Of a stretch of 64,000 nt of DNA, positions 3,487 through 62,250 are shown one piece after another. The stretch is from positions 1 to 64,000 of the IMG/VR virus record IMGVR_UViG_3300037297_000195; one strand, written 5' to 3'. The notes beneath the pieces were generated by a model that ran no database searches, was not told the DNA's origin, and saw nothing but the letters and a program-made list of their open reading frames with translations. A program made the position numbers and the translations under genes. Positions within the stretch are counted from its first letter, which is position 1, and each line of letters begins with the position of its first letter. The stretch comes from a virus.

Positions 3487-3516
3487 TTTCAATCCTTTCT
3501 TTTTTTTGTTATGTTT

Positions 3517-3557
3517 TCAAAGAGGCTATCAAATATTAATTGATAGCTACTCTGAAA
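3517..3557 (-). promoter_or_regulatory. conserved-base/variable-top intergenic RNA hairpin, copy B
   Basis: Minus strand: UUUCAGAGUAG-[CUAUCAA UUAAUAU UUGAUAG]-CCUCUUUGA. Confidence 0.5.
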
Positions 3558-3574
3558 TCATATCATCTCCCCAT

Positions 3575-3644
3575 CCCCTCTCTGAGTTTGTCTCACCGGC
3601 TTCCAGTATCCGGTTGCCCATCCGACTCAGTTTCTCTTTCGGGG
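3575..3644 (-). promoter_or_regulatory. GC-rich three-tier stem-loop in predicted leader of leftward early transcript
   Basis: Nested complementary pairs: 3575-3578/3641-3644 (CCCC/GGGG), 3582-3587/3625-3630 (CTGAGT/ACTCAG) and 3595-3599/3610-3614 (ACCGG/CCGGT). Confidence 0.45.
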
Positions 3645-3668
3645 CTGTTTTTTTATTTTCAATGACCG

Positions 3669-3681
3669 TGTATAGTTAATA
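3669..3681. repeat. 13-mer TGTATAGTTAATA, copy 1
   Basis: Identical to 3775..3787. Both copies lie in the divergent control region. Confidence 0.7.
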
Positions 3682-3709
3682 ATCTATCACACACTATCAC
3701 ACCTGTCAA
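3681..3709 (-). promoter_or_regulatory. sigma-70-type promoter for leftward early genes
   Basis: Minus strand: TTGACA (3704-3709), a 17-nt spacer, then TAGATT (3681-3686). The spacer carries the tandem CTATCACAC repeats. Confidence 0.55.
3684..3703. repeat. tandem decamer CTATCACACA/CTATCACACC (operator-like)
   Basis: Two adjacent copies read directly. They lie inside the spacer of the predicted promoter. Confidence 0.7.
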
Positions 3710-3774
3710 GCAAAATTAATTAATTTTTTTGAAAAATATTAATTTTTTTATTTGGTTGATTTTACTAACAAAAA

Positions 3775-3787
3775 TGTATAGTTAATA
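3775..3787. repeat. 13-mer TGTATAGTTAATA, copy 2
   Basis: Identical to 3669..3681. Contains a TATAGT -10-like hexamer on the plus strand. Confidence 0.7.
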
Positions 3788-4030
3788 TTAATACCTTAAT
3801 TTTATTAATAAATTAATCCTTCCCCTGAAAACCAGGCTCTATTATAATGATAGCTAATGAGGCGCGTTTTTGGCCCGGATTAATTTAACTAATTTTACTA
3901 ATCGCGCTACAAGGCTCTGTAAGGGGCTAAATTAATAAAATGGAGGTTTGTAAGTGGTTGAAATAATTGATAGCGGCTCTAAACCAATACTAACATATAG
4001 GGTTTTTGCTAATTTTTAGAGAGTGGAAAA

Positions 4031-35164: not shown

Positions 35165-35523
35165 GTATTTTGTCTGGAGTAGTTGGAAATTTGTTTGGCT
35201 CATTAAAGGGCCAATTGATCAGCTTGATTTTGAGCTATCTTCCCGAAATTACAGATCTGATCAAAGATGAATTGGAAGCATTAATCCAAAAATGGTATGC
35301 CGATTCCGGCGATACCCCAAAAATGTGGGATGATTTGTTATTCAGTTTTTGCTTGGATGTCATTAATTTTGGGGATGAAAGTCACAAAAAAGTATTTCCT
35401 CAAGAGTTTAAAGAGGGAATGTATGTTCTGTATTACAAAACGAAAAATACACCTAATCCATATGACGATATTGTAGTCGCCGCATTATTTAAATTAATGG
35501 GCTTGGAAACCCCTGCAAGTTAA
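35161..35523 (+). CDS. hypothetical protein (amphipathic N-terminus)
   Basis: 120 aa with a GGAG RBS. The last plus-strand gene before the convergent terminator. Confidence 0.5.
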   Translation: MSILSGVVGNLFGSLKGQLISLILSYLPEITDLIKDELEALIQKWYADSGDTPKMWDDLLFSFCLDVINFGDESHKKVFPQEFKEGMYVLYYKTKNTPNPYDDIVVAALFKLMGLETPAS

Positions 35524-36241: not shown

Positions 36242-36249
36242 AATTAATT

Positions 36250-36402
36250 TTACTCCTTGTTTTTAGCGATAAATTTCGCGGCTTTAATGATCAGAAACCG
36301 CAAAATGTCGGCGACTAAAGCTCCAAAAACAGCTGAGAAAAAAACAATTTCGATAAGCTTCATTTGGCTTATCGGCATCATTAAAACTGTTGTTCCTTCC
36401 AT
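36250..36402 (-). CDS. holin candidate (50 aa, one TM helix)
   Basis: AAGGAG lies 6 nt before the ATG. MEGTTVLMMPISQMKLIEIVFFSAVFGALVADILRFLIIKAAKFIAKNKE has a TM helix plus a basic tail. Immediately upstream of the endolysin. Confidence 0.5.
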   Translation of the reverse strand: MEGTTVLMMPISQMKLIEIVFFSAVFGALVADILRFLIIKAAKFIAKNKE

Positions 36403-36440
36403 TTTTTACTCCTTGTTTTTTATTAATTGATGATTTATAT

Positions 36441-36621
36441 ATTAAATGCTGGCTTGCCACATCTTTCTATTAATGGGCAATGCCCTTGAGAAGTAGAGCT
36501 TAATAGAAAGGCATCCCAATATCAAATTGATATCAGGTATCATGCAATCTCCAATATTCCGCTTTATAACCACCATATCTTATTTTTGCGGTTGAAGTTC
36601 CCATGAAAGCCAGCATTAAAT
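36441..36621 (-). promoter_or_regulatory. nested inverted-repeat element (structured leader) upstream of lysis cassette
   Basis: 11-bp pair 36445-36455/36607-36617, 11-bp pair 36463-36473/36500-36510 enclosing GGGC/GCCC (36475-36485), and 7-bp palindrome 36519-36533. Confidence 0.5.
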
Positions 36622-36729
36622 TTATCCTCTCTTTTTCAAGTAAACTTTTTTAACCCCATCTTCAAATTTAAGGATTAAGATTATTTCTTTCGCACGATCC
36701 ATTTCGACGTGTGATACTCTTACTTTCAT
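36622..36729 (-). CDS. 35-aa mini-protein
   Basis: Its ATG lies 1 nt after the upstream stop. Sequence MKVRVSHVEMDRAKEIILILKFEDGVKKVYLKKRG. Confidence 0.3.
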   Translation of the reverse strand: MKVRVSHVEMDRAKEIILILKFEDGVKKVYLKKRG

Positions 36730-36730
36730 T

Positions 36731-42887: not shown

Positions 42888-42918
42888 CCTATTATATCCA
42901 AAAATCCTAAAATTCTGC
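42888..42918 (-). promoter_or_regulatory. conserved promoter-like 31-mer, copy 1
   Basis: Minus strand GCAGAATTTTAGGATTTTTGGATATAATAGG, with TATAAT at 42891-42896. Intergenic, heading the membrane-protein operon. Confidence 0.55.
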
Positions 42919-42926
42919 TAAATAAA

Positions 42927-47644: not shown

Positions 47645-47675
47645 CCTATTATATCCAAAAATCCTCAAAATCTGC
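47645..47675 (-). promoter_or_regulatory. conserved promoter-like 31-mer, copy 2
   Basis: Minus strand GCAGATTTTGAGGATTTTTGGATATAATAGG, with TATAAT at 47648-47653. Intergenic. Confidence 0.55.
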
Positions 47676-47683
47676 CGATTAAT

Positions 47684-52198: not shown

Positions 52199-52389
52199 TC
52201 TTTTTCGCTTTCATCATAAGCACGATGGGCTTTTTCATTTAAACATAAATTTGCCGAATTGATATAATGACAATTATAATAACAAAATGGCACAACTATT
52301 GGCTCATAAAAATCACAATTTCTTCCTCTCTCATTCAATGTTAAAGAACAAATATATATCCCTGTAATTGACTTCATACACCCATTCAT
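52195..52389 (-). CDS. Cys-rich mini-protein
   Basis: 64 aa with 6 Cys. ATGA overlaps. Confidence 0.4.
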   Translation of the reverse strand: MNGCMKSITGIYICSLTLNERGRNCDFYEPIVVPFCYYNCHYINSANLCLNEKAHRAYDESEKE

Positions 52390-52802
52390 TTCACTAACCC
52401 CATTTCTTTAAAACGAGCAAGATTTCTGGCTTCTCTTTCCAATATTTCATTCATTTCTTTCGTAATATCTTCTCCCTGATAATAAATAGGAATGTCATTT
52501 TGAAAGGCGAAATAAATTTCATTCTTGGTTTCTTCAGAATCAAATAAGGGGTAATCAAAAATAGTCAAAGCCAAAATATCAGACCGTTTAAGCAATTCCA
52601 AAGCCCCTTCAAGCCAAGCTTCATCCGGCAAAATGCCATCAAATAAAGCTGTATTCATATGCGGGCAGATAACTGTATAGCCTAATTCCCAATATTCTAT
52701 AGCCGTTTTTTCAGCCAACCTAATATTTTCAACGGTTTCCCTGATAGTATCCGCTCGATATGGGCCAGCAATGTAAACTACTTTTTCTCTTTTATTCCCC
52801 AT
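52386..52802 (-). CDS. nucleoside 2-deoxyribosyltransferase-like protein (DUF1937/DUF4406 type)
   Basis: VVYIAGPYRADT...AEKTAIEYWELGYTVICPHMN...LLKRSDILALT...ETKNEI..A.QNDIPIYY follows the YIAGPY...G..V.sP......cD.l.........E......PV pattern. Confidence 0.45.
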   Translation of the reverse strand: MGNKREKVVYIAGPYRADTIRETVENIRLAEKTAIEYWELGYTVICPHMNTALFDGILPDEAWLEGALELLKRSDILALTIFDYPLFDSEETKNEIYFAFQNDIPIYYQGEDITKEMNEILEREARNLARFKEMGLVK

Positions 52803-52978
52803 TCTTCACCTCCGATATGAGTAAAATTTTCATCAATTAATTCCCAAATTCTTTGTTGTTCTTCTGCATCTTCAGACTGGATATTTATTTCAAATATTTT
52901 GGATATAGGGCGTAATTCTACCCAATCATTCTCTACATACTCTTCACATTTTGTTTCTATATTATAATGCAAAATCAT
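52778..52978 (-). CDS. hypothetical protein
   Basis: 66-aa acidic ORF on the same strand, overlapping its neighbours. Confidence 0.4.
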   Translation of the reverse strand: MILHYNIETKCEEYVENDWVELRPISKIFEINIQSEDAEEQQRIWELIDENFTHIGGEEWGIKEKK

Positions 52979-53232
52979 TTCCCAACTCCAAACAGTCTTT
53001 TAATTAATTTACAATGTTTAAATAAATCACAATATTCTTTATCCCCTCTGACTTCCCCAACTGTCGCAAATTCTGTTTCTGATACCCTTCCATTTATAGG
53101 GTCGAAATATTCTCTCTTAGAAATGATCCTTTCTCTACATACATAAATATAGCTTGCGGAAAATTGATTATATTTTAGATCAAAACTTTTGCAATTAGCA
53201 CAAGCATTCACTTTATGTTTTTCTCTTTTCAT
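52975..53232 (-). CDS. Cys-rich mini-protein
   Basis: CANC...C...C pattern. ATGA overlaps. Confidence 0.4.
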   Translation of the reverse strand: MKREKHKVNACANCKSFDLKYNQFSASYIYVCRERIISKREYFDPINGRVSETEFATVGEVRGDKEYCDLFKHCKLIKRLFGVGK

Positions 53233-54266
53233 AACAACCTCTTTCCTCCCATTTTTTGGGCTTTAATTAAATTTCTTATTGCAGTGATATAATAACTTTT
53301 CTTTAGCTCAATCCCGATAAATTTTCTCCCCATTTTAATTGATTCATATCCTTCAGAACCAATACCGGCAAATGGGCTTAACACAATATCCCCCGGATTT
53401 GTCCAATAATGCAAACATCTTGCAATTGCTTGTAATTGAAGCGGCGCAATATGGCGTTCATCTTTTTTGTCTCTTGCTATTCTAATATTCAAAGTATCAG
53501 TCTGATCAATATCCATCCATACCGGATCTGCATAACGCCTAAAAACTTTTTGGCTATATCTATTTTTACCTTGTATATCATTTTTACTTTCAATCGGCTC
53601 TGGATCACTCCCAACATAATATTCAAAACCTCTACCATGAGAAACCGGCTCTAGGTTATCTCCCGGCTTTCTAAATGTCAGAATTTCATCCATAAATCCA
53701 TGATTACACCTGGCCGAATCTTTCACTAATTGTTTGTGCATTAATCCTAATGCTTTTGTTCGAACTGCCTGAATAAGCGGATCTTTCCAAATACCAACTT
53801 TTGAGTGGTATATGAAGTTTTGTTTTTCAAATAATCGAACAATCATGCCCGGAAAATCCTTAAGGCCAATCACTCCATCTTTCGCTAAACTCATTAACAC
53901 TATACTGCAATGAACACTCACTAATCTTCCAGGCATGATTACCCGAAATAATTCTGAAATTAAGTATTCGAAATGTTCGTAAAATTCACTATCTGTTTTT
54001 GAATTCCCCATATCCCTTTCATTGTCTGAATAAACATAAAGGGAAAGAAATGGAGGGGAAAATATTGAATAGTGGATTGAATTAGAAGGAATTCCTTTGA
54101 TAACTTCAACACAATCCCCTTGATATAAAGACCAGTTATCAGTTATTTTTTGGGAAATAACCTTAACATTTTTATCGTGTTTTTTGTGTTCAATATCAAA
54201 TAATTTTGCTTTTGCCTCAATTAATTTTGAACGGTAGAATTCAATTTCATCATAAATTTCTTGCAT
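53229..54266 (-). CDS. DNA methyltransferase, N6_N4 (beta-class) family, SPPF motif suggests N4-cytosine specificity
   Basis: Motif IV IFSPPF lies upstream of motif I DIVLSPFAGIGSEGYESIKMGRKFIGIEL. Confidence 0.75.
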   Translation of the reverse strand: MQEIYDEIEFYRSKLIEAKAKLFDIEHKKHDKNVKVISQKITDNWSLYQGDCVEVIKGIPSNSIHYSIFSPPFLSLYVYSDNERDMGNSKTDSEFYEHFEYLISELFRVIMPGRLVSVHCSIVLMSLAKDGVIGLKDFPGMIVRLFEKQNFIYHSKVGIWKDPLIQAVRTKALGLMHKQLVKDSARCNHGFMDEILTFRKPGDNLEPVSHGRGFEYYVGSDPEPIESKNDIQGKNRYSQKVFRRYADPVWMDIDQTDTLNIRIARDKKDERHIAPLQLQAIARCLHYWTNPGDIVLSPFAGIGSEGYESIKMGRKFIGIELKKSYYITAIRNLIKAQKMGGKRLL

Positions 54267-54275
54267 GTTAATTTC

Positions 54276-55433
54276 CTATCTTTTGTAATACCATTTATCC
54301 CAGTCCTTATCTGTCAAAAAACATTTTCCGTTTTTATTTAAAACGCTATCCTTGCTTTTAATCCAACTTTCAAATGTTTTATCCCCTCTATTATATCCAA
54401 ATGTTTGTCCCCAGTTTGAAAAAGCCTTTATTAAATTTTTAGTCCAATATTTGCCAACATAATCAAGTTTTTTATAAGTTTGATTCAATGGCCGATATCT
54501 CATTAGATATGGATTGTTTTTATACCTCCATGCTTGTTGTGCTCTATAATAAGCCTCTTGAGGGGTATCGTTAAAATTGAATAAAACATATGTATAAGAA
54601 TTCCCACTTATTCTAAATCCAACTTTTTGCATTAATTCCATTGCTTTTTGATAATGACCATCATCTGACATCCGATCAAAAGCCGTTCTAAATCCATGTC
54701 TAATATAAGATAAAGATGCTAATAATTTAGCATTTTCTTTATTAATTAATTTACAATCAACCCCATTATTAAAAATAACTTTCTTCTTTCTTTCATTCAA
54801 AAGATTGATTACGTTTTTAACGTGTTCTGAAGGCGACACTAAAAAATTATTATCAGAAACAACGCATACTTCTCTATCTGATTCAATAATATTTTTATCC
54901 CAATTTTCAAGAATGTGGAATTTAGGTTCCATTCTCCATACCATACAATAGCCGCATTTATTTGGGCAGCCCCTTGTGGTAAATAGTGTTATGCAATTAT
55001 TGAAAAAGCCTTTTATGTTATAATCCAGCGAATAATCTGGCAAATATGAATCAATAATATCAGAACAATTAACAAATACTTTTGCTCTTCTCGTATTCTT
55101 AATTATATACTCCGGCATTAAAGAGGCAAAAATACCGCCAACCAGGATATCAACATCTTTCAAAAATAAACTTCTTTCAATTTCATTAATTGTTTTTAAA
55201 ACAGTTTTGGCATCATTAGTAAAACAAGTTGACACACATATTAAATCCAATTCTTCTTGATATCTTGGGTAATTGTCAAAATAAACTTCTTTGCCATGAT
55301 CTTTTAAAAAGGACGATATTTTAGCTAAACCAAGAGGAATATAAACCCTTCGATATGGTGGTTCGATAAGTTGAACTTTTTTTGATTTTTTCAACCTATC
55401 TATTAATTGGTTTTCATCAATTAGCCTGCCCAT
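54276..55433 (-). CDS. radical SAM enzyme with N-terminal B12-binding-like domain
   Basis: TTRGCPNKCGYCMVW is CxxxCxxC. N-terminal VQLIEPPYRRVYIPLGLAKISSFLKDHGKEV resembles the Rossmann-like domain of class B radical SAM enzymes. Confidence 0.7.
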   Translation of the reverse strand: MGRLIDENQLIDRLKKSKKVQLIEPPYRRVYIPLGLAKISSFLKDHGKEVYFDNYPRYQEELDLICVSTCFTNDAKTVLKTINEIERSLFLKDVDILVGGIFASLMPEYIIKNTRRAKVFVNCSDIIDSYLPDYSLDYNIKGFFNNCITLFTTRGCPNKCGYCMVWRMEPKFHILENWDKNIIESDREVCVVSDNNFLVSPSEHVKNVINLLNERKKKVIFNNGVDCKLINKENAKLLASLSYIRHGFRTAFDRMSDDGHYQKAMELMQKVGFRISGNSYTYVLFNFNDTPQEAYYRAQQAWRYKNNPYLMRYRPLNQTYKKLDYVGKYWTKNLIKAFSNWGQTFGYNRGDKTFESWIKSKDSVLNKNGKCFLTDKDWDKWYYKR

Positions 55434-58969: not shown

Positions 58970-59637
58970 TATTTATTTTTCTTTCTGAATCCATCTTCAT
59001 CGGTTTCAACAGGAGCCATCAAAATTTTGGTTTTCTTATCAACAATAGCGCTTAAAGATTTCTTTACTTGGGACATAACAACCCTGGTAGATGATTCGTT
59101 GCCGGGGAATTTTGCCATGGTTTTTTGAAAAATTTGTTCAGATGTGTGTTTGCTCTCTCTGATTAAATTTTCGATAAAAGAACGTTTCGAATTCGGATCT
59201 TTTGCCCGACCTTGCCCTTTTTTCCTCGGTTTTTTTTCGGCAGGTTCGGATTTTTCCTCTTTGGAAGCAGGGTTATTTTCTTCCCGTTTCTTTAACTCTT
59301 CTTTTGTATATCCAACTTTTTTTCCCTTATTAGCCCTATACCCAAACATTTTTTTAAGGCCATTGGGAATATCATTAGGAGGGACAATTTCCTTCAAAAC
59401 CGCCATGGTTTCATCGGAAAAATTATCCTCACGGTGCATATGTTTTTTGACAAATTCAATTATAAACTCAGACACTTTTTCAATTGCGTCTACCAGATCT
59501 GGTTTTTTTGTGCTCGCCGGTTTAACAACAATTTTATCTTCAATGAACAATTCGATTTCAGCAGCAGCCAAGTTGTATCGTTTTAGTTTATCCTTCAGCA
59601 TCTTCCAAATTTCAATACCACTCATTTTTTCAGGCAT
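58969..59637 (-). CDS. Lys-rich hypothetical protein
   Basis: 222 aa, with a central KKREENNPASKEEKSEPAEKKPRKKGQGRAK basic region. Confidence 0.5.
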   Translation of the reverse strand: MPEKMSGIEIWKMLKDKLKRYNLAAAEIELFIEDKIVVKPASTKKPDLVDAIEKVSEFIIEFVKKHMHREDNFSDETMAVLKEIVPPNDIPNGLKKMFGYRANKGKKVGYTKEELKKREENNPASKEEKSEPAEKKPRKKGQGRAKDPNSKRSFIENLIRESKHTSEQIFQKTMAKFPGNESSTRVVMSQVKKSLSAIVDKKTKILMAPVETDEDGFRKKNK

Positions 59638-60041
59638 TATTTATTTTCTCCTTGTAGTCTTTCATATTTTTCAATAAAGCTGTCTATTGCTTCAACAGGA
59701 TCATCAAGTTTCTCGAAGACATATTTGTTTTCGAGTGTTTGGGCTTCTCTTTTTGCTTTCTCACAGAAATTTTCAACTTCAATTTTTCTTTGGTTATTTC
59801 TCCCTTCAATTTCATCAAGGCCATCAAATTCGAAAAAATCGAATAGTTGATCCATGCCCCAAGGGCAATCATTTTTTTCAAATTTTTCGATCTTGAATCG
59901 AGCTTTCCCATTTAAAATTTGGGAAACCTTTTCCTCATTTGTCATTTCCTCATACTGAACTTTATCCTTAATGATCGATGTGACATGTTTTAACGCCACT
60001 TGAATTTTACGATTGAAAAAGTTAATTTGAGTCTGATTCAT
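59637..60041 (-). CDS. hypothetical protein
   Basis: The track's TTG start at 60131 would read through the terminator hairpin. ATG 60041 (MNQTQINFF) after GGGAGAATGGG is preferred. Confidence 0.5.
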   Translation of the reverse strand: MNQTQINFFNRKIQVALKHVTSIIKDKVQYEEMTNEEKVSQILNGKARFKIEKFEKNDCPWGMDQLFDFFEFDGLDEIEGRNNQRKIEVENFCEKAKREAQTLENKYVFEKLDDPVEAIDSFIEKYERLQGENK

Positions 60042-60074
60042 CCCATTCTCCCATTGTATTAATTTTAGTTTTTT

Positions 60075-60110
60075 TACAAAAAGAAAGCCCGCCCATATAT
60101 TGAGCGGGCT
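60075..60110 (-). terminator. intrinsic terminator ending the large ncRNA unit
   Basis: Minus strand AGCCCGC-11 nt loop-GCGGGCU (60104-60110/60086-60092), followed by UUUCUUUUUGU. Confidence 0.7.
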
Positions 60111-60893
60111 GTGTAACCAGAGAAAAATCAAGATACTTTTTTAATTTAATTATTACCGGCCTTTTTCATCCCTGCCTACCTCAGAGAAGGGCCGAACATT
60201 TTCTTTCCTCCCGGCGTTTCGCCATCCGGCGTTTCACCATTTACATTTTTAGTTAATTTACAGGCTCAAGCAGAAACTGAACTTGAGCGGCTAATATCAC
60301 CAAGAAAATGTAACCCTGTTTTTCGTCTTACATACATTAATACAATCAACTTAAGGACAGGTGAGCGAATAAACAGGGAAAAATCGCTCGGGGAAAATGC
60401 TGGACTACCAGCGTCATTCTTAACCCTGAAATCGGTCCAGGGGCGCGGCGCTTTTTAGACCGGAAAAGCTAAACCGTCTCTATCCGCGCTTTGGGTCGGT
60501 TTTTATCGCGGTGTGCCGTTCCGCATTAATTAAATGATGGAGTAGGCATTAAATGTTTGCCGATCAACCGTCACTCCATCAAGACTAATCGACCAGCATT
60601 TGCGAGTTTCCAGGCATACTATCTTCTATTGGGCAGCCATCTTGACCGTTTTGAACTCGCTAAAACCAACGAATCAGATAGCCCAGATTAATTTAGGTCT
60701 CACCAACGCTGGCTCCACCGAGTTAACAGCTTCTACGCCATACCATCTCAACCTAAACAATCTCGCGGTCTCCCTACGGCGTTAGGCCTTCGACCGACTT
60801 TCCGATTGCCCCTTCCCAATCTTTCGGGATGATATCTCCACGCGGGCAATCGACCGAGAGAGTTGACTGGCGGCATCGTTGCGGCCCCCTCTC
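60078..60893 (-). ncRNA. candidate giant (~0.8 kb) structured non-coding RNA, family unassigned
   Basis: G+C is 52-55% against 37-38% in the flanks (hand counts of 60-nt lines). There is no ORF with an RBS. It has its own promoter-motif copy and terminator, and many perfect 7-10-bp helices plus a pseudoknot candidate (listed in findings). Confidence 0.6.
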
Positions 60894-60896
60894 ACC

Positions 60897-60927
60897 CCTA
60901 TTATATCCAAAAATATTAAAAATCTGC
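60897..60927 (-). promoter_or_regulatory. conserved promoter-like 31-mer, copy 3
   Basis: Minus strand GCAGATTTTTAATATTTTTGGATATAATAGG, with TATAAT at 60900-60905. It points into the ORF-free GC-rich region. Confidence 0.55.
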
Positions 60928-60972
60928 AAAGTTTTTTTAATTTTTTCAAACTTTTTTGTTTTCCCATTAATA

Positions 60973-62250
60973 TTAATCACTTCCATCATGGGTTTCTACC
61001 CAACGAATCCGATCTTTTTTGGTTTCCAGCCGCATTTTGAATGATTCAACAGCGGATCCAGGGGCTAAATTCCGGGCCTTGATAAATGAGATCCAGATAT
61101 CATCCTCTTGACTTCCTCCACTCCGAGTCATGGAGATTACCACATCCATGGCATCTTCGTGGCTACTTGTTCCCCGCTGAGCCTTTTTATTCTTTCCGGC
61201 ATGGTGAACAATAATTACAGCCAACCCTAAATGTCTTAGGGTAATCAGCCATTGGTTAATCATATCCCAATCATTTTTGTTATTTTCGTCCCTACCAGGC
61301 GTTAATGCCGAAAGATTATCAAAAATAACTGTTTTAATTTTCGGATTACCCGCAATATATTGATAAATTGAATCCCTCCATTCCTGGTTTGTAAGGTTCA
61401 ATTGCTTTCTTAATTCTCTGGCTATTCGGTTAGAACTTAAAATATAAAGCGGATTTTTTAGATCCTCCCTTAACCCATGGCTTAGTAATTTAAGGCGTTC
61501 TTGCATTTCCCATTCAGGCATCTCTCCGTCAATATAAAGCACTCCTGACGGGCTTTTAATCTGCCATGGGCCTATTTCATAATCCATCCATTCATGACGT
61601 GTTAGGCCGACCGCCAAGGCCAGACAAAGCCATGTTTTGCCTATTCCTGATGGAGCATAAATCATGTTTAATCTACTAAGATTTAACCATGGTCGGACTA
61701 ATCGTCTTGGTTTATGTAATTTCTCCCTGATAAATTTGGTCGAGAGAATGGATGTGTCTTTGATTTCTTCGATTAACGTATTTTGGCCAATGGGTTTGAT
61801 GCCTTTTAGAGCTTGTTCGGCTTCGTCGAACTTGCCTTTTTCTATTAATTCCTGTGCTGTTTCGGATGCTTCCCTAATTTGACATTTCCGAAAATATTCT
61901 ACGGTTCGATTGTATTCAAATATAGGATCAAAATCATTTTCACTTGATTCATATTTACCGTTTATGTTCTGTAATATTAAATTTATTTCTTCTATTTCTT
62001 CTTGAGTGTTCGCCTCTCTTTCCTGGAAACTTTCAAATAATGCCTTAATTTTTGTCTTTGGGGATTCTGAATATTCCGAATAATATTTCAAACAAAGGTT
62101 AATTATTTTATTAATTCCAGATGATCGAACAAAATTAGGATTGTGAATTTTACCATAGGTTTTAACAAATTCATCACTGACAATACATCCGATCAGGATA
62201 TTTTGTTCGATCAATGCCCAGTCAGGTTTTTTTAGTGTTAGTTCTGGCAT
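60973..62250 (-). CDS. DnaB/RepA-like replicative helicase (RecA-fold, AAA_25-type)
   Basis: The N-terminal LIEQNILIGCIVSDEFV is DnaB-N-like. Walker A YAPSGIGKTWLCLALAV, Walker B VIFDNLSAL, and IVHHAGKN. Confidence 0.65.
   Translation of the reverse strand: MPELTLKKPDWALIEQNILIGCIVSDEFVKTYGKIHNPNFVRSSGINKIINLCLKYYSEYSESPKTKIKALFESFQEREANTQEEIEEINLILQNINGKYESSENDFDPIFEYNRTVEYFRKCQIREASETAQELIEKGKFDEAEQALKGIKPIGQNTLIEEIKDTSILSTKFIREKLHKPRRLVRPWLNLSRLNMIYAPSGIGKTWLCLALAVGLTRHEWMDYEIGPWQIKSPSGVLYIDGEMPEWEMQERLKLLSHGLREDLKNPLYILSSNRIARELRKQLNLTNQEWRDSIYQYIAGNPKIKTVIFDNLSALTPGRDENNKNDWDMINQWLITLRHLGLAVIIVHHAGKNKKAQRGTSSHEDAMDVVISMTRSGGSQEDDIWISFIKARNLAPGSAVESFKMRLETKKDRIRWVETHDGSD

Follow-up and report, generated by a model that had tools for sequence, protein, structure and literature searches.

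We identified a predicted non-coding transcription unit of about 815 nt in the genome of an uncultivated tailed phage, within its DNA-replication gene block. The analysis covered positions 1 to 64,000 of IMG/VR record IMGVR_UViG_3300037297_000195; this 64-kb stretch is called the window, and positions are numbered from its first letter. The phage is represented by a contig of about 70 kb, Logan SRR12668987_16087, from which the window derives, and by a JGI assembly. The unit lies on the minus strand between a replicative helicase gene and a replisome operon. It is bracketed by a recurrent phage promoter motif and an intrinsic terminator, and it contains an excess of long helices. Our favored reading, held at slightly less than even confidence, is that it is a lineage-specific, stand-alone structured non-coding RNA (ncRNA) gene of the phage.

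A promoter-to-terminator unit without coding potential

The unit occupies most of a gap without a credible open reading frame (ORF), which spans 60042-60972 (931 nt) from the helicase stop codon to the next ATG at 60041. Its three parts are the following.

60897-60931, minus strand: phage promoter motif CTTTGCAGATTTTTAATATTTTTGGATATAATAGG, with the -10 element TATAAT at 60900-60905; promoter activity is predicted.
60078-60893, minus strand: predicted non-coding transcript of about 815 nt, with a GC content of 0.471, A about equal to U, no ORF and an excess of helices.
60077-60110, minus strand: intrinsic terminator, with a 10-bp stem running from 60110 to 60086, the loop AUAUA and the U-tract UUUCUUUUU.

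The earlier note on this DNA had described these roughly 930 nt as lacking a credible ORF, and a stop census in all six frames agrees. Each frame on both strands contains 9-22 stop codons. The stops in every frame are of mixed types, so stop-codon recoding cannot restore an ORF. Open stretches reach at most 309 nt; the one of this length is on the plus strand and lacks a start codon. The period-3 Fourier signal-to-noise ratio of the unit is 1.28, compared with 0.99±0.56 in shuffled sequences, and all 26 of 26 same-length coding chunks score higher (minimum 1.60, median 7.4). The GC content at the three codon positions is flat across the unit. Six-frame translations with stops masked as X gave no meaningful match to Pfam or PHROGs; the single PHROG match covers 17 residues at E=0.0026 and is noise. 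No similar protein, real or spuriously called, was found among 5.8 billion sequences with a six-frame concatenation as the query. When the 102-codon open frame was searched exhaustively with HMMER, the only matches were low-complexity repetitive proteins, reached through the translated tandem repeat. A hidden gene or recent pseudogene is rejected by the stop census, the codon-position GC, the period-3 analysis and the Pfam and PHROGs scans. The unit is non-coding.

The promoter motif is a recurrent element of this phage. It had been proposed as the third copy of a promoter-like sequence, and three minus-strand copies of the class GCAGAnTTTnAnnATTTTTGGATATAATAGG were indeed found, at 60897-60931, 47645-47679 and 42888-42922. 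At up to three mismatches, the 31-mer gave no repeat in the window, and a looser search was needed to reveal the copies. They are identical at about 25-26 of 31 bases, and their final 17 nt are identical. The copies at 47645-47679 and 42888-42922 directly precede ordinary ORFs led by a Shine-Dalgarno (SD) sequence, indicating that the motif is a real phage promoter class. The conservation extends beyond the hexamers to the spacer and the +1 region, which suggests that the class needs either a factor that the phage encodes or RNA polymerase in a modified form. Transcription of the unit is predicted to start at about 60890-60893. A weaker copy of the motif is located at 54387-54403.

The terminator at the other end conforms to the consensus, with a GC-rich stem followed by a U-tract, as had been proposed. 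Seven of the stem pairs are G-C, and the predicted folding energy is about -18 kcal/mol. The loop has 5 nt, and the tail that follows the hairpin reads TTTCTTTTT. It is one of two strong minus-strand terminators in the window; the other, near 35,520, closes the entire leftward gene block. No segment upstream of the terminator can form seven or more contiguous pairs with its 5' arm. Since this leaves no alternative anti-terminator pairing, the terminator appears to be unconditional. The minus strand thus carries the arrangement from promoter to terminator that was first described, which points to transcription of the unit.

The base composition of the unit is unusual for this genome. At 0.471, the GC content of 60078-60893 exceeds that of the window as a whole (0.366), with a local maximum of 0.575 over 200 nt. 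The counts given earlier were exact on recount, with 33/60 and 31/60 inside the unit and 22/60 and 23/60 in the flanking coding lines. A 300-nt window in a capsid gene equals the value of 0.527 reached in the unit, and high GC alone is therefore not unique to it. The unit is, though, the sole GC-rich gap without ORFs in the window, whereas the other two such gaps are AT-rich. On the minus strand, A is about equal to U, and the purine excess is below that of every neighboring coding strand. The G/C skew of the unit is no higher than that of coding strands, which rules out G-richness of the R-loop type.

The two AT-rich gaps (GC 0.32-0.34) are found at 3493-4030, upstream of the terminase genes, and at 36242-36730, beside the endolysin gene. 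The latter lies where the leftward and rightward gene blocks meet. Both are likely regulatory or packaging regions.

Predicted RNA structure

The unit contains more long helices than expected from its composition. Six perfect Watson-Crick helices of at least 9 bp are present, compared with 1.37±1.16 in dinucleotide shuffles, and none of 100 shuffles reaches six. Thirteen coding chunks of the same length contain such helices at their own shuffle expectation. When G·U pairs are allowed, the minus strand has 28 helices of at least 10 bp versus 19.1±3.7 in shuffles, a number reached by one shuffle in 100. The plus strand has 9 versus 8.3±3.3, reached by 43 of 100. Because G·U pairs exist only in RNA, and in only one strand, this excess favors structure in the strand predicted by the promoter and terminator. 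A strand difference is also observed in folding energy between 60550 and 60775, where 150-nt windows reach -39/-50 kcal/mol on the minus strand and -23/-26 kcal/mol on the plus strand.

All helices listed in the earlier note are perfectly complementary, and several helices exceed a pair probability of 0.7 in the predicted ensemble. Folding of the single sequence predicted the following elements.

60803-60852, minus strand: hairpin of the 5' domain, with a helix of 9-10 bp (60844-60853/60802-60811) that encloses a hairpin (60824-60829/60814-60819); pair probability above 0.7 in single-sequence prediction.
60645-60730, minus strand: predicted long imperfect hairpin of three stacked helices (60725-60730/60645-60650, 60719-60724/60654-60659 and 60707-60717/60661-60671), with four G·U pairs.
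60535-60581, minus strand: predicted hairpin with a 10-bp stem (60572-60581/60535-60544).
60363-60489, minus strand: predicted helix cluster, with the helix 60484-60489/60443-60448 and hairpins at 60424-60442, 60399-60412 and 60363-60389.
60241-60321, minus strand: predicted hairpin 60264-60288 within the helix 60306-60313/60241-60248.
60211-60240, minus strand: tandem 15-nt repeat, in RNA AUGGUGAAACGCCGG AUGGCGAAACGCCGG, predicted to form mini-hairpins.

The tandem decamer GAAACGCCGG is present twice as reported, and forms part of the longer 15-nt repeat, which also occurs twice. The repeat could pair in two ways, either as two GGYG-AAA-CGCC mini-hairpins or as an alternative CGCC/GGCG hairpin. 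The two copies differ only by one U/C change, which preserves pairing (G·U versus G-C).

A pseudoknot of 8 bp had been proposed between 60314-60321 and the hairpin loop at 60371-60378. The two segments are perfectly complementary. However, complementarity of this length is at chance level in the unit, with seven 8-bp matches versus 4.5±2.3 in shuffles.

Comparison with known RNA families and search for homologs

The unit was compared with known structured RNAs. A cmscan search of the whole window against Rfam 15 gave no match at the gathering threshold. Among the models without an Rfam match are OLE, raiA, HEARO/omega RNA, group I and group II introns, RNase P, tmRNA and 6S RNA. Matches with E>1 at 60068-60170 are to weak terminator-like small RNAs and reflect the 3' terminator hairpin. 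The best aptamer match, to FMN, has 14 bits and E=2.8, and is noise. ARAGORN detected neither tRNA nor tmRNA genes anywhere in the 64 kb.

The earlier note was reminded of GOLLD and ROOL. These are large, ornate ncRNAs of phages and prophages with unknown function, which form RNA-only nanocages in cryo-electron microscopy structures and are often located near tRNA islands (PMC12286853). Several features of the unit are similar. It is phage-encoded, several hundred nucleotides long (GOLLD exceeds 800 nt), non-coding and without known function; its GC content stands out in an AT-rich genome, and many helices are predicted in it. Kinship is nevertheless not supported by the searches. Neither the GOLLD covariance model, with its conserved 3' region and pseudoknots, nor the ROOL model, with P1-P19 and pseudoknot P10, gives a match at the gathering threshold or even at E<=10, and no tRNAs are present within the 64 kb. 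In addition, the structures of GOLLD and ROOL rest on covariation over many members, whereas the unit is a singleton whose structure comes from single-sequence prediction.

Sequence relatives of the unit were searched for in several collections. BLASTN against phages and plasmids gave no match. Degenerate patterns back-translated from the open frames found no homolog in IMG/VR, in JGI metagenome contigs or in GTDB genomes; such pattern scans mostly miss relatives below about 85% identity, and a diverged family could escape them. A scan anchored on the polymerase gene gave no homolog of the unit. The promoter core had four chance matches in IMG/VR and none in GTDB genomes, and no sister phages were found with it.

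Scanning for the tandem motif GAAACGCCGG-N5-GAAACGCCGG returned more than 120 metagenome and 8 viral matches. All of them encode linkers with a pentapeptide period in contigs of about 60% GC, and they were rejected; none has extended similarity to the unit. A further candidate counterpart was a stretch of 731 nt in a relative (L007:1944-2674), which is elevated in GC and seemingly free of ORFs. It was rejected, since it contains small SD-led ORFs, which encode hydrophobic peptides. This case cautions against calling a region non-coding from a gap alone.

Genomic context of the unit

The unit is flanked by genes that are transcribed in the same direction. Its immediate neighbors are the following.

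60973-62250, minus strand: upstream neighbor, a replicative helicase of the AAA_25 family, with its TAA stop codon at 60973-60975.
59637-60041, minus strand: downstream neighbor, a 134-aa ORFan and the first gene of the replisome operon, with an SD-led ATG 37 nt past the terminator.

The genes preceding the unit encode, in order, a helix-turn-helix regulator, an O-like/DnaD-like initiator, a primase and the helicase. Those following it encode two ORFans, a sliding clamp, an SNF2 helicase, a B12-radical-SAM protein, a DNA methyltransferase, a nucleoside deoxyribosyltransferase, a DnaE-type polymerase fused to uracil-DNA glycosylase (UDG), a clamp loader and RecA. The replisome operon extends over about 12 kb on the minus strand (60041 to about 47684). 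Between the terminator at 60086-60110 and the following copy of the motif, no promoter belonging to this operon was recognized.

The initiator gene (L001:3329-4573) is located just past the right end of the window. It contains 24-nt tandem repeats with internal dyad symmetry, AGGCTCAAAAATGAGCC, and an A-rich low-complexity tract about 130 nt after these repeats.

No reverse transcriptase, IscB, TnpB or Cas protein was found among the annotated neighbors, which include many small ORFans and come from a scan of part of the ORFs in the window. Among these annotated neighbors, the gene context offers no hint of a template or guide RNA.

A stand-alone RNA gene and its alternatives

In the reading that we favor, a phage-specific promoter would start minus-strand transcription at about 60893. 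The same promoter class would drive two coding operons in the leftward block. The strong, unconditional terminator would then free an RNA of about 815 nt at about 60078. This RNA would fold into a 5' hairpin domain, an imperfect G·U-rich hairpin of about 40 bp, several hairpins of 5-10 bp and the tandem mini-hairpins. It would act in trans, as RNA, during the replication phase of infection, and as a side effect the terminator would throttle transcription into the replisome genes. We infer the transcript, its fold and any function from the sequence and its predicted signals.

Several observations weigh against such an RNA gene. The folding energy of the unit is one of them. Over the whole length, the minimum free energy (MFE) z-score is -2.4 to -2.7 (120 shuffles), compared with -1.17±1.19 for coding controls, which places the unit only about one standard deviation beyond these controls, and 2 of the 12 coding chunks score equally low. 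The plus strand has an MFE z-score of -3.0 to -3.2, as good as or better than the minus strand. Local windows average -1.4 against a background of -0.65±1.1, a modest difference. GNRA and UNCG loops are not obviously enriched among the predicted hairpins. With permissive filters, Rfam models searched at E<=10 over 59900-61100 gave noise only and no family.

Comparative data point in the same direction. No homolog of the unit was found in any collection searched. We compared about 30 loci that contain relatives of the helicase at 30-52% identity, four obtained through protein look-ups and 26 through an IMG/VR helicase-family alignment. Within ±6 kb of these helicase genes, blastn and nhmmer found no similar sequence, and no GC-rich block without ORFs is present; coding genes directly follow the helicase in the relatives. 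Finally, the downstream replisome operon has no promoter of the conserved class of its own, an arrangement that fits a role in cis equally well.

The earlier description of the unit as a candidate giant structured RNA is therefore partly supported. Its non-coding nature between promoter and terminator, its GC enrichment and the significant and strand-specific excess of long helices are borne out. A giant structured RNA is not established, as the MFE z-scores are modest and the plus strand scores as well or better. In our assessment, the single-sequence evidence for RNA structure is real but moderate.

A more far-reaching proposal sees in the unit the first known member of a novel class of large (about 0.8 kb) structured phage RNAs, unrelated to GOLLD and ROOL, driven by a phage-specific promoter in the replication module, with a defined tertiary and possibly oligomeric fold and a trans role in infection. 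We regard this as possible but doubtful. The unit is a reasonable lead and a single-sequence candidate rather than a demonstrated new RNA class. Large phage ncRNAs like GOLLD and ROOL are rare, and an unrelated member of about 0.8 kb, if true, would widen a small set. Its regulatory context, with a phage-specific promoter in the replication module upstream of the replisome operon, could hint at its function. The unit is short enough for synthesis, which opens its folding to tests in vitro although the phage is uncultivated.

The main rival to a stand-alone ncRNA is a cis-acting leader or timing element, which we consider unlikely. In this case the promoter at 60900 would serve the 12-kb replisome operon (60041 to about 47684), and the unit and its terminator would gate entry into it. 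Polymerase would pass the terminator either by leaky read-through or by processive antitermination of the kind known from lambda N/nut, Q/qut or HK022 put. The distribution of promoters is in line with this proposal. The conserved class occurs only at 60.9, 47.65 and 42.9 kb, with the weak copy at 54.39 kb, and nothing lies in the 37 nt that separate the terminator from the ATG at 60041. Because the operon has no promoter of this class until 47.65 kb, the weak copy at 54.39 kb aside, transcripts that start at the 60900 promoter or come in from the early operon upstream may need to read through. Only two strong terminators are present in the leftward block, and this is one of them. Binding of a phage factor is suggested by the conserved spacer of the promoter, and the predicted tandem mini-hairpins could be protein-binding sites.

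The size of the unit speaks against a leader. Known leaders are, to our knowledge, far shorter than 815 nt. An alternative anti-terminator pairing is absent, and the search for a riboswitch or attenuator found neither a competing anti-terminator helix nor an aptamer family in the unit. No N- or Q-type antiterminator was recognizable among the early proteins, most of which are ORFans. The other two copies of the promoter function without such a leader, and relatives that share the gene order lack it. Lambdoid phages provide a close comparison. In lambda, a 6S RNA of about 194 nt is located before the late genes. Like the PR'-6S RNA-tR' and nut regions of these phages, the unit combines a promoter, a terminated untranslated transcript and a long operon that needs read-through. 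Unlike them, it is four times longer and GC-rich, and no Q or N homolog was recognized. If the unit is a leader or timing element after all, it would be an unusually long non-coding gate before a phage replisome operon.

The unit may instead be a non-functional remnant, such as a decayed moron or a recombination scar of GC-richer foreign DNA, in which the promoter and terminator were kept and the RNA has no role. We judge this somewhat less probable than a leader. Phage morons were reportedly described by Hendrix and colleagues as autonomous insertions of a promoter, a gene and a terminator with deviant composition. The unit resembles them in being an independent promoter-to-terminator cassette between conserved genes, with deviant GC content, that is missing in relatives. 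Its cargo is not a protein gene, however, and its promoter belongs to the phage's own class. A remnant would account for the singleton status of the unit, which is missing from the approximately 30 relatives and from all collections searched, for its deviation from the composition of the rest of the genome and for its unexceptional folding energy. Against decay, no residual period-3 signal and no protein similarity were found in any frame, and the promoter and terminator are both intact. The helix excess is significant and its G·U part is strand-specific, which is unexpected for random foreign DNA. Moreover, phage genomes are compact, and this is the only GC-rich gap without ORFs in 64 kb.

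A transcription-activated replication origin appears improbable. The promoter-driven transcript would prime or open the origin, and ColE1 RNA II is a comparable origin-priming transcript. In favor of an origin, the unit belongs to the replication module and comes right behind the genes for the initiator and helicase; ahead of the terminator there is an AT-rich stretch at about 60115-60160. In lactococcal c2-type phages (Ceduovirus), the PE1-T transcript is proposed to activate the replication origin; this origin is located between divergent early and late blocks, has two early promoters at its flanks and needs no phage replication proteins (PMC7150918). The unit is similar in that it specifies a promoter-driven non-coding transcript linked to replication by its position, and in that its sequence is lineage-specific, as the c2-type origins share no similarity between types. 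The gene arrangement of a c2-type PE1-T origin was not found at the unit. The genes on both sides of the unit run in the same direction, a terminator closes it, and an initiator, a helicase and a primase are all encoded by the phage.

A candidate origin of another type is present in this phage. The O-like initiator gene contains a lambda-type origin candidate, consisting of two perfect 24-nt dyad repeats (L001:3638-3683) and an A-rich tract (3810-3950). Both the position of these iterons within the initiator gene and the presence of a phage primase weaken the case for an origin in the unit. The unit itself has no iteron arrays, its G/C skew is within the coding background, and the relatives lack the block.

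Least probable of all is an mRNA that hides small protein genes, such as a 42-aa Arg-rich ORF (60748-60876, minus strand; weak SD-like GAGG 11 nt upstream) or a 7-codon mini-ORF (60176-60199, minus strand; MFGPSLR) with a perfect SD sequence GGGAGGAAAG at ideal spacing: the apparent gap in the relative L007 did prove to be a run of small SD-led ORFs, but here such ORFs would span less than 20% of the unit, have no homologs and come without a period-3 signal anywhere in it, and Arg-richness is the default outcome of GC-rich non-coding sequence. The mini-ORF directly follows the tandem mini-hairpins and could be a leader peptide or a chance occurrence.

Other features of the replication block

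The replicative polymerase of the phage (48866-52198, minus strand) is of the PHP/PolIII-alpha (DnaE) type and carries a fused C-terminal uracil-DNA glycosylase domain. It has relatives in L004 and L007, and the L007 relative also carries an intein. Genes for a B12-binding radical-SAM protein, an N6/N4 DNA methyltransferase and a nucleoside 2-deoxyribosyltransferase are clustered at 52386-55433 on the minus strand. In relatives (L003:5152-5553 and L004:6941-7711), PTPS (QueD-like) and TAGT (DpdA-like) genes are found after the helicase. Together, these genes hint at DNA hypermodification in this phage group, possibly of the 7-deazaguanine type.

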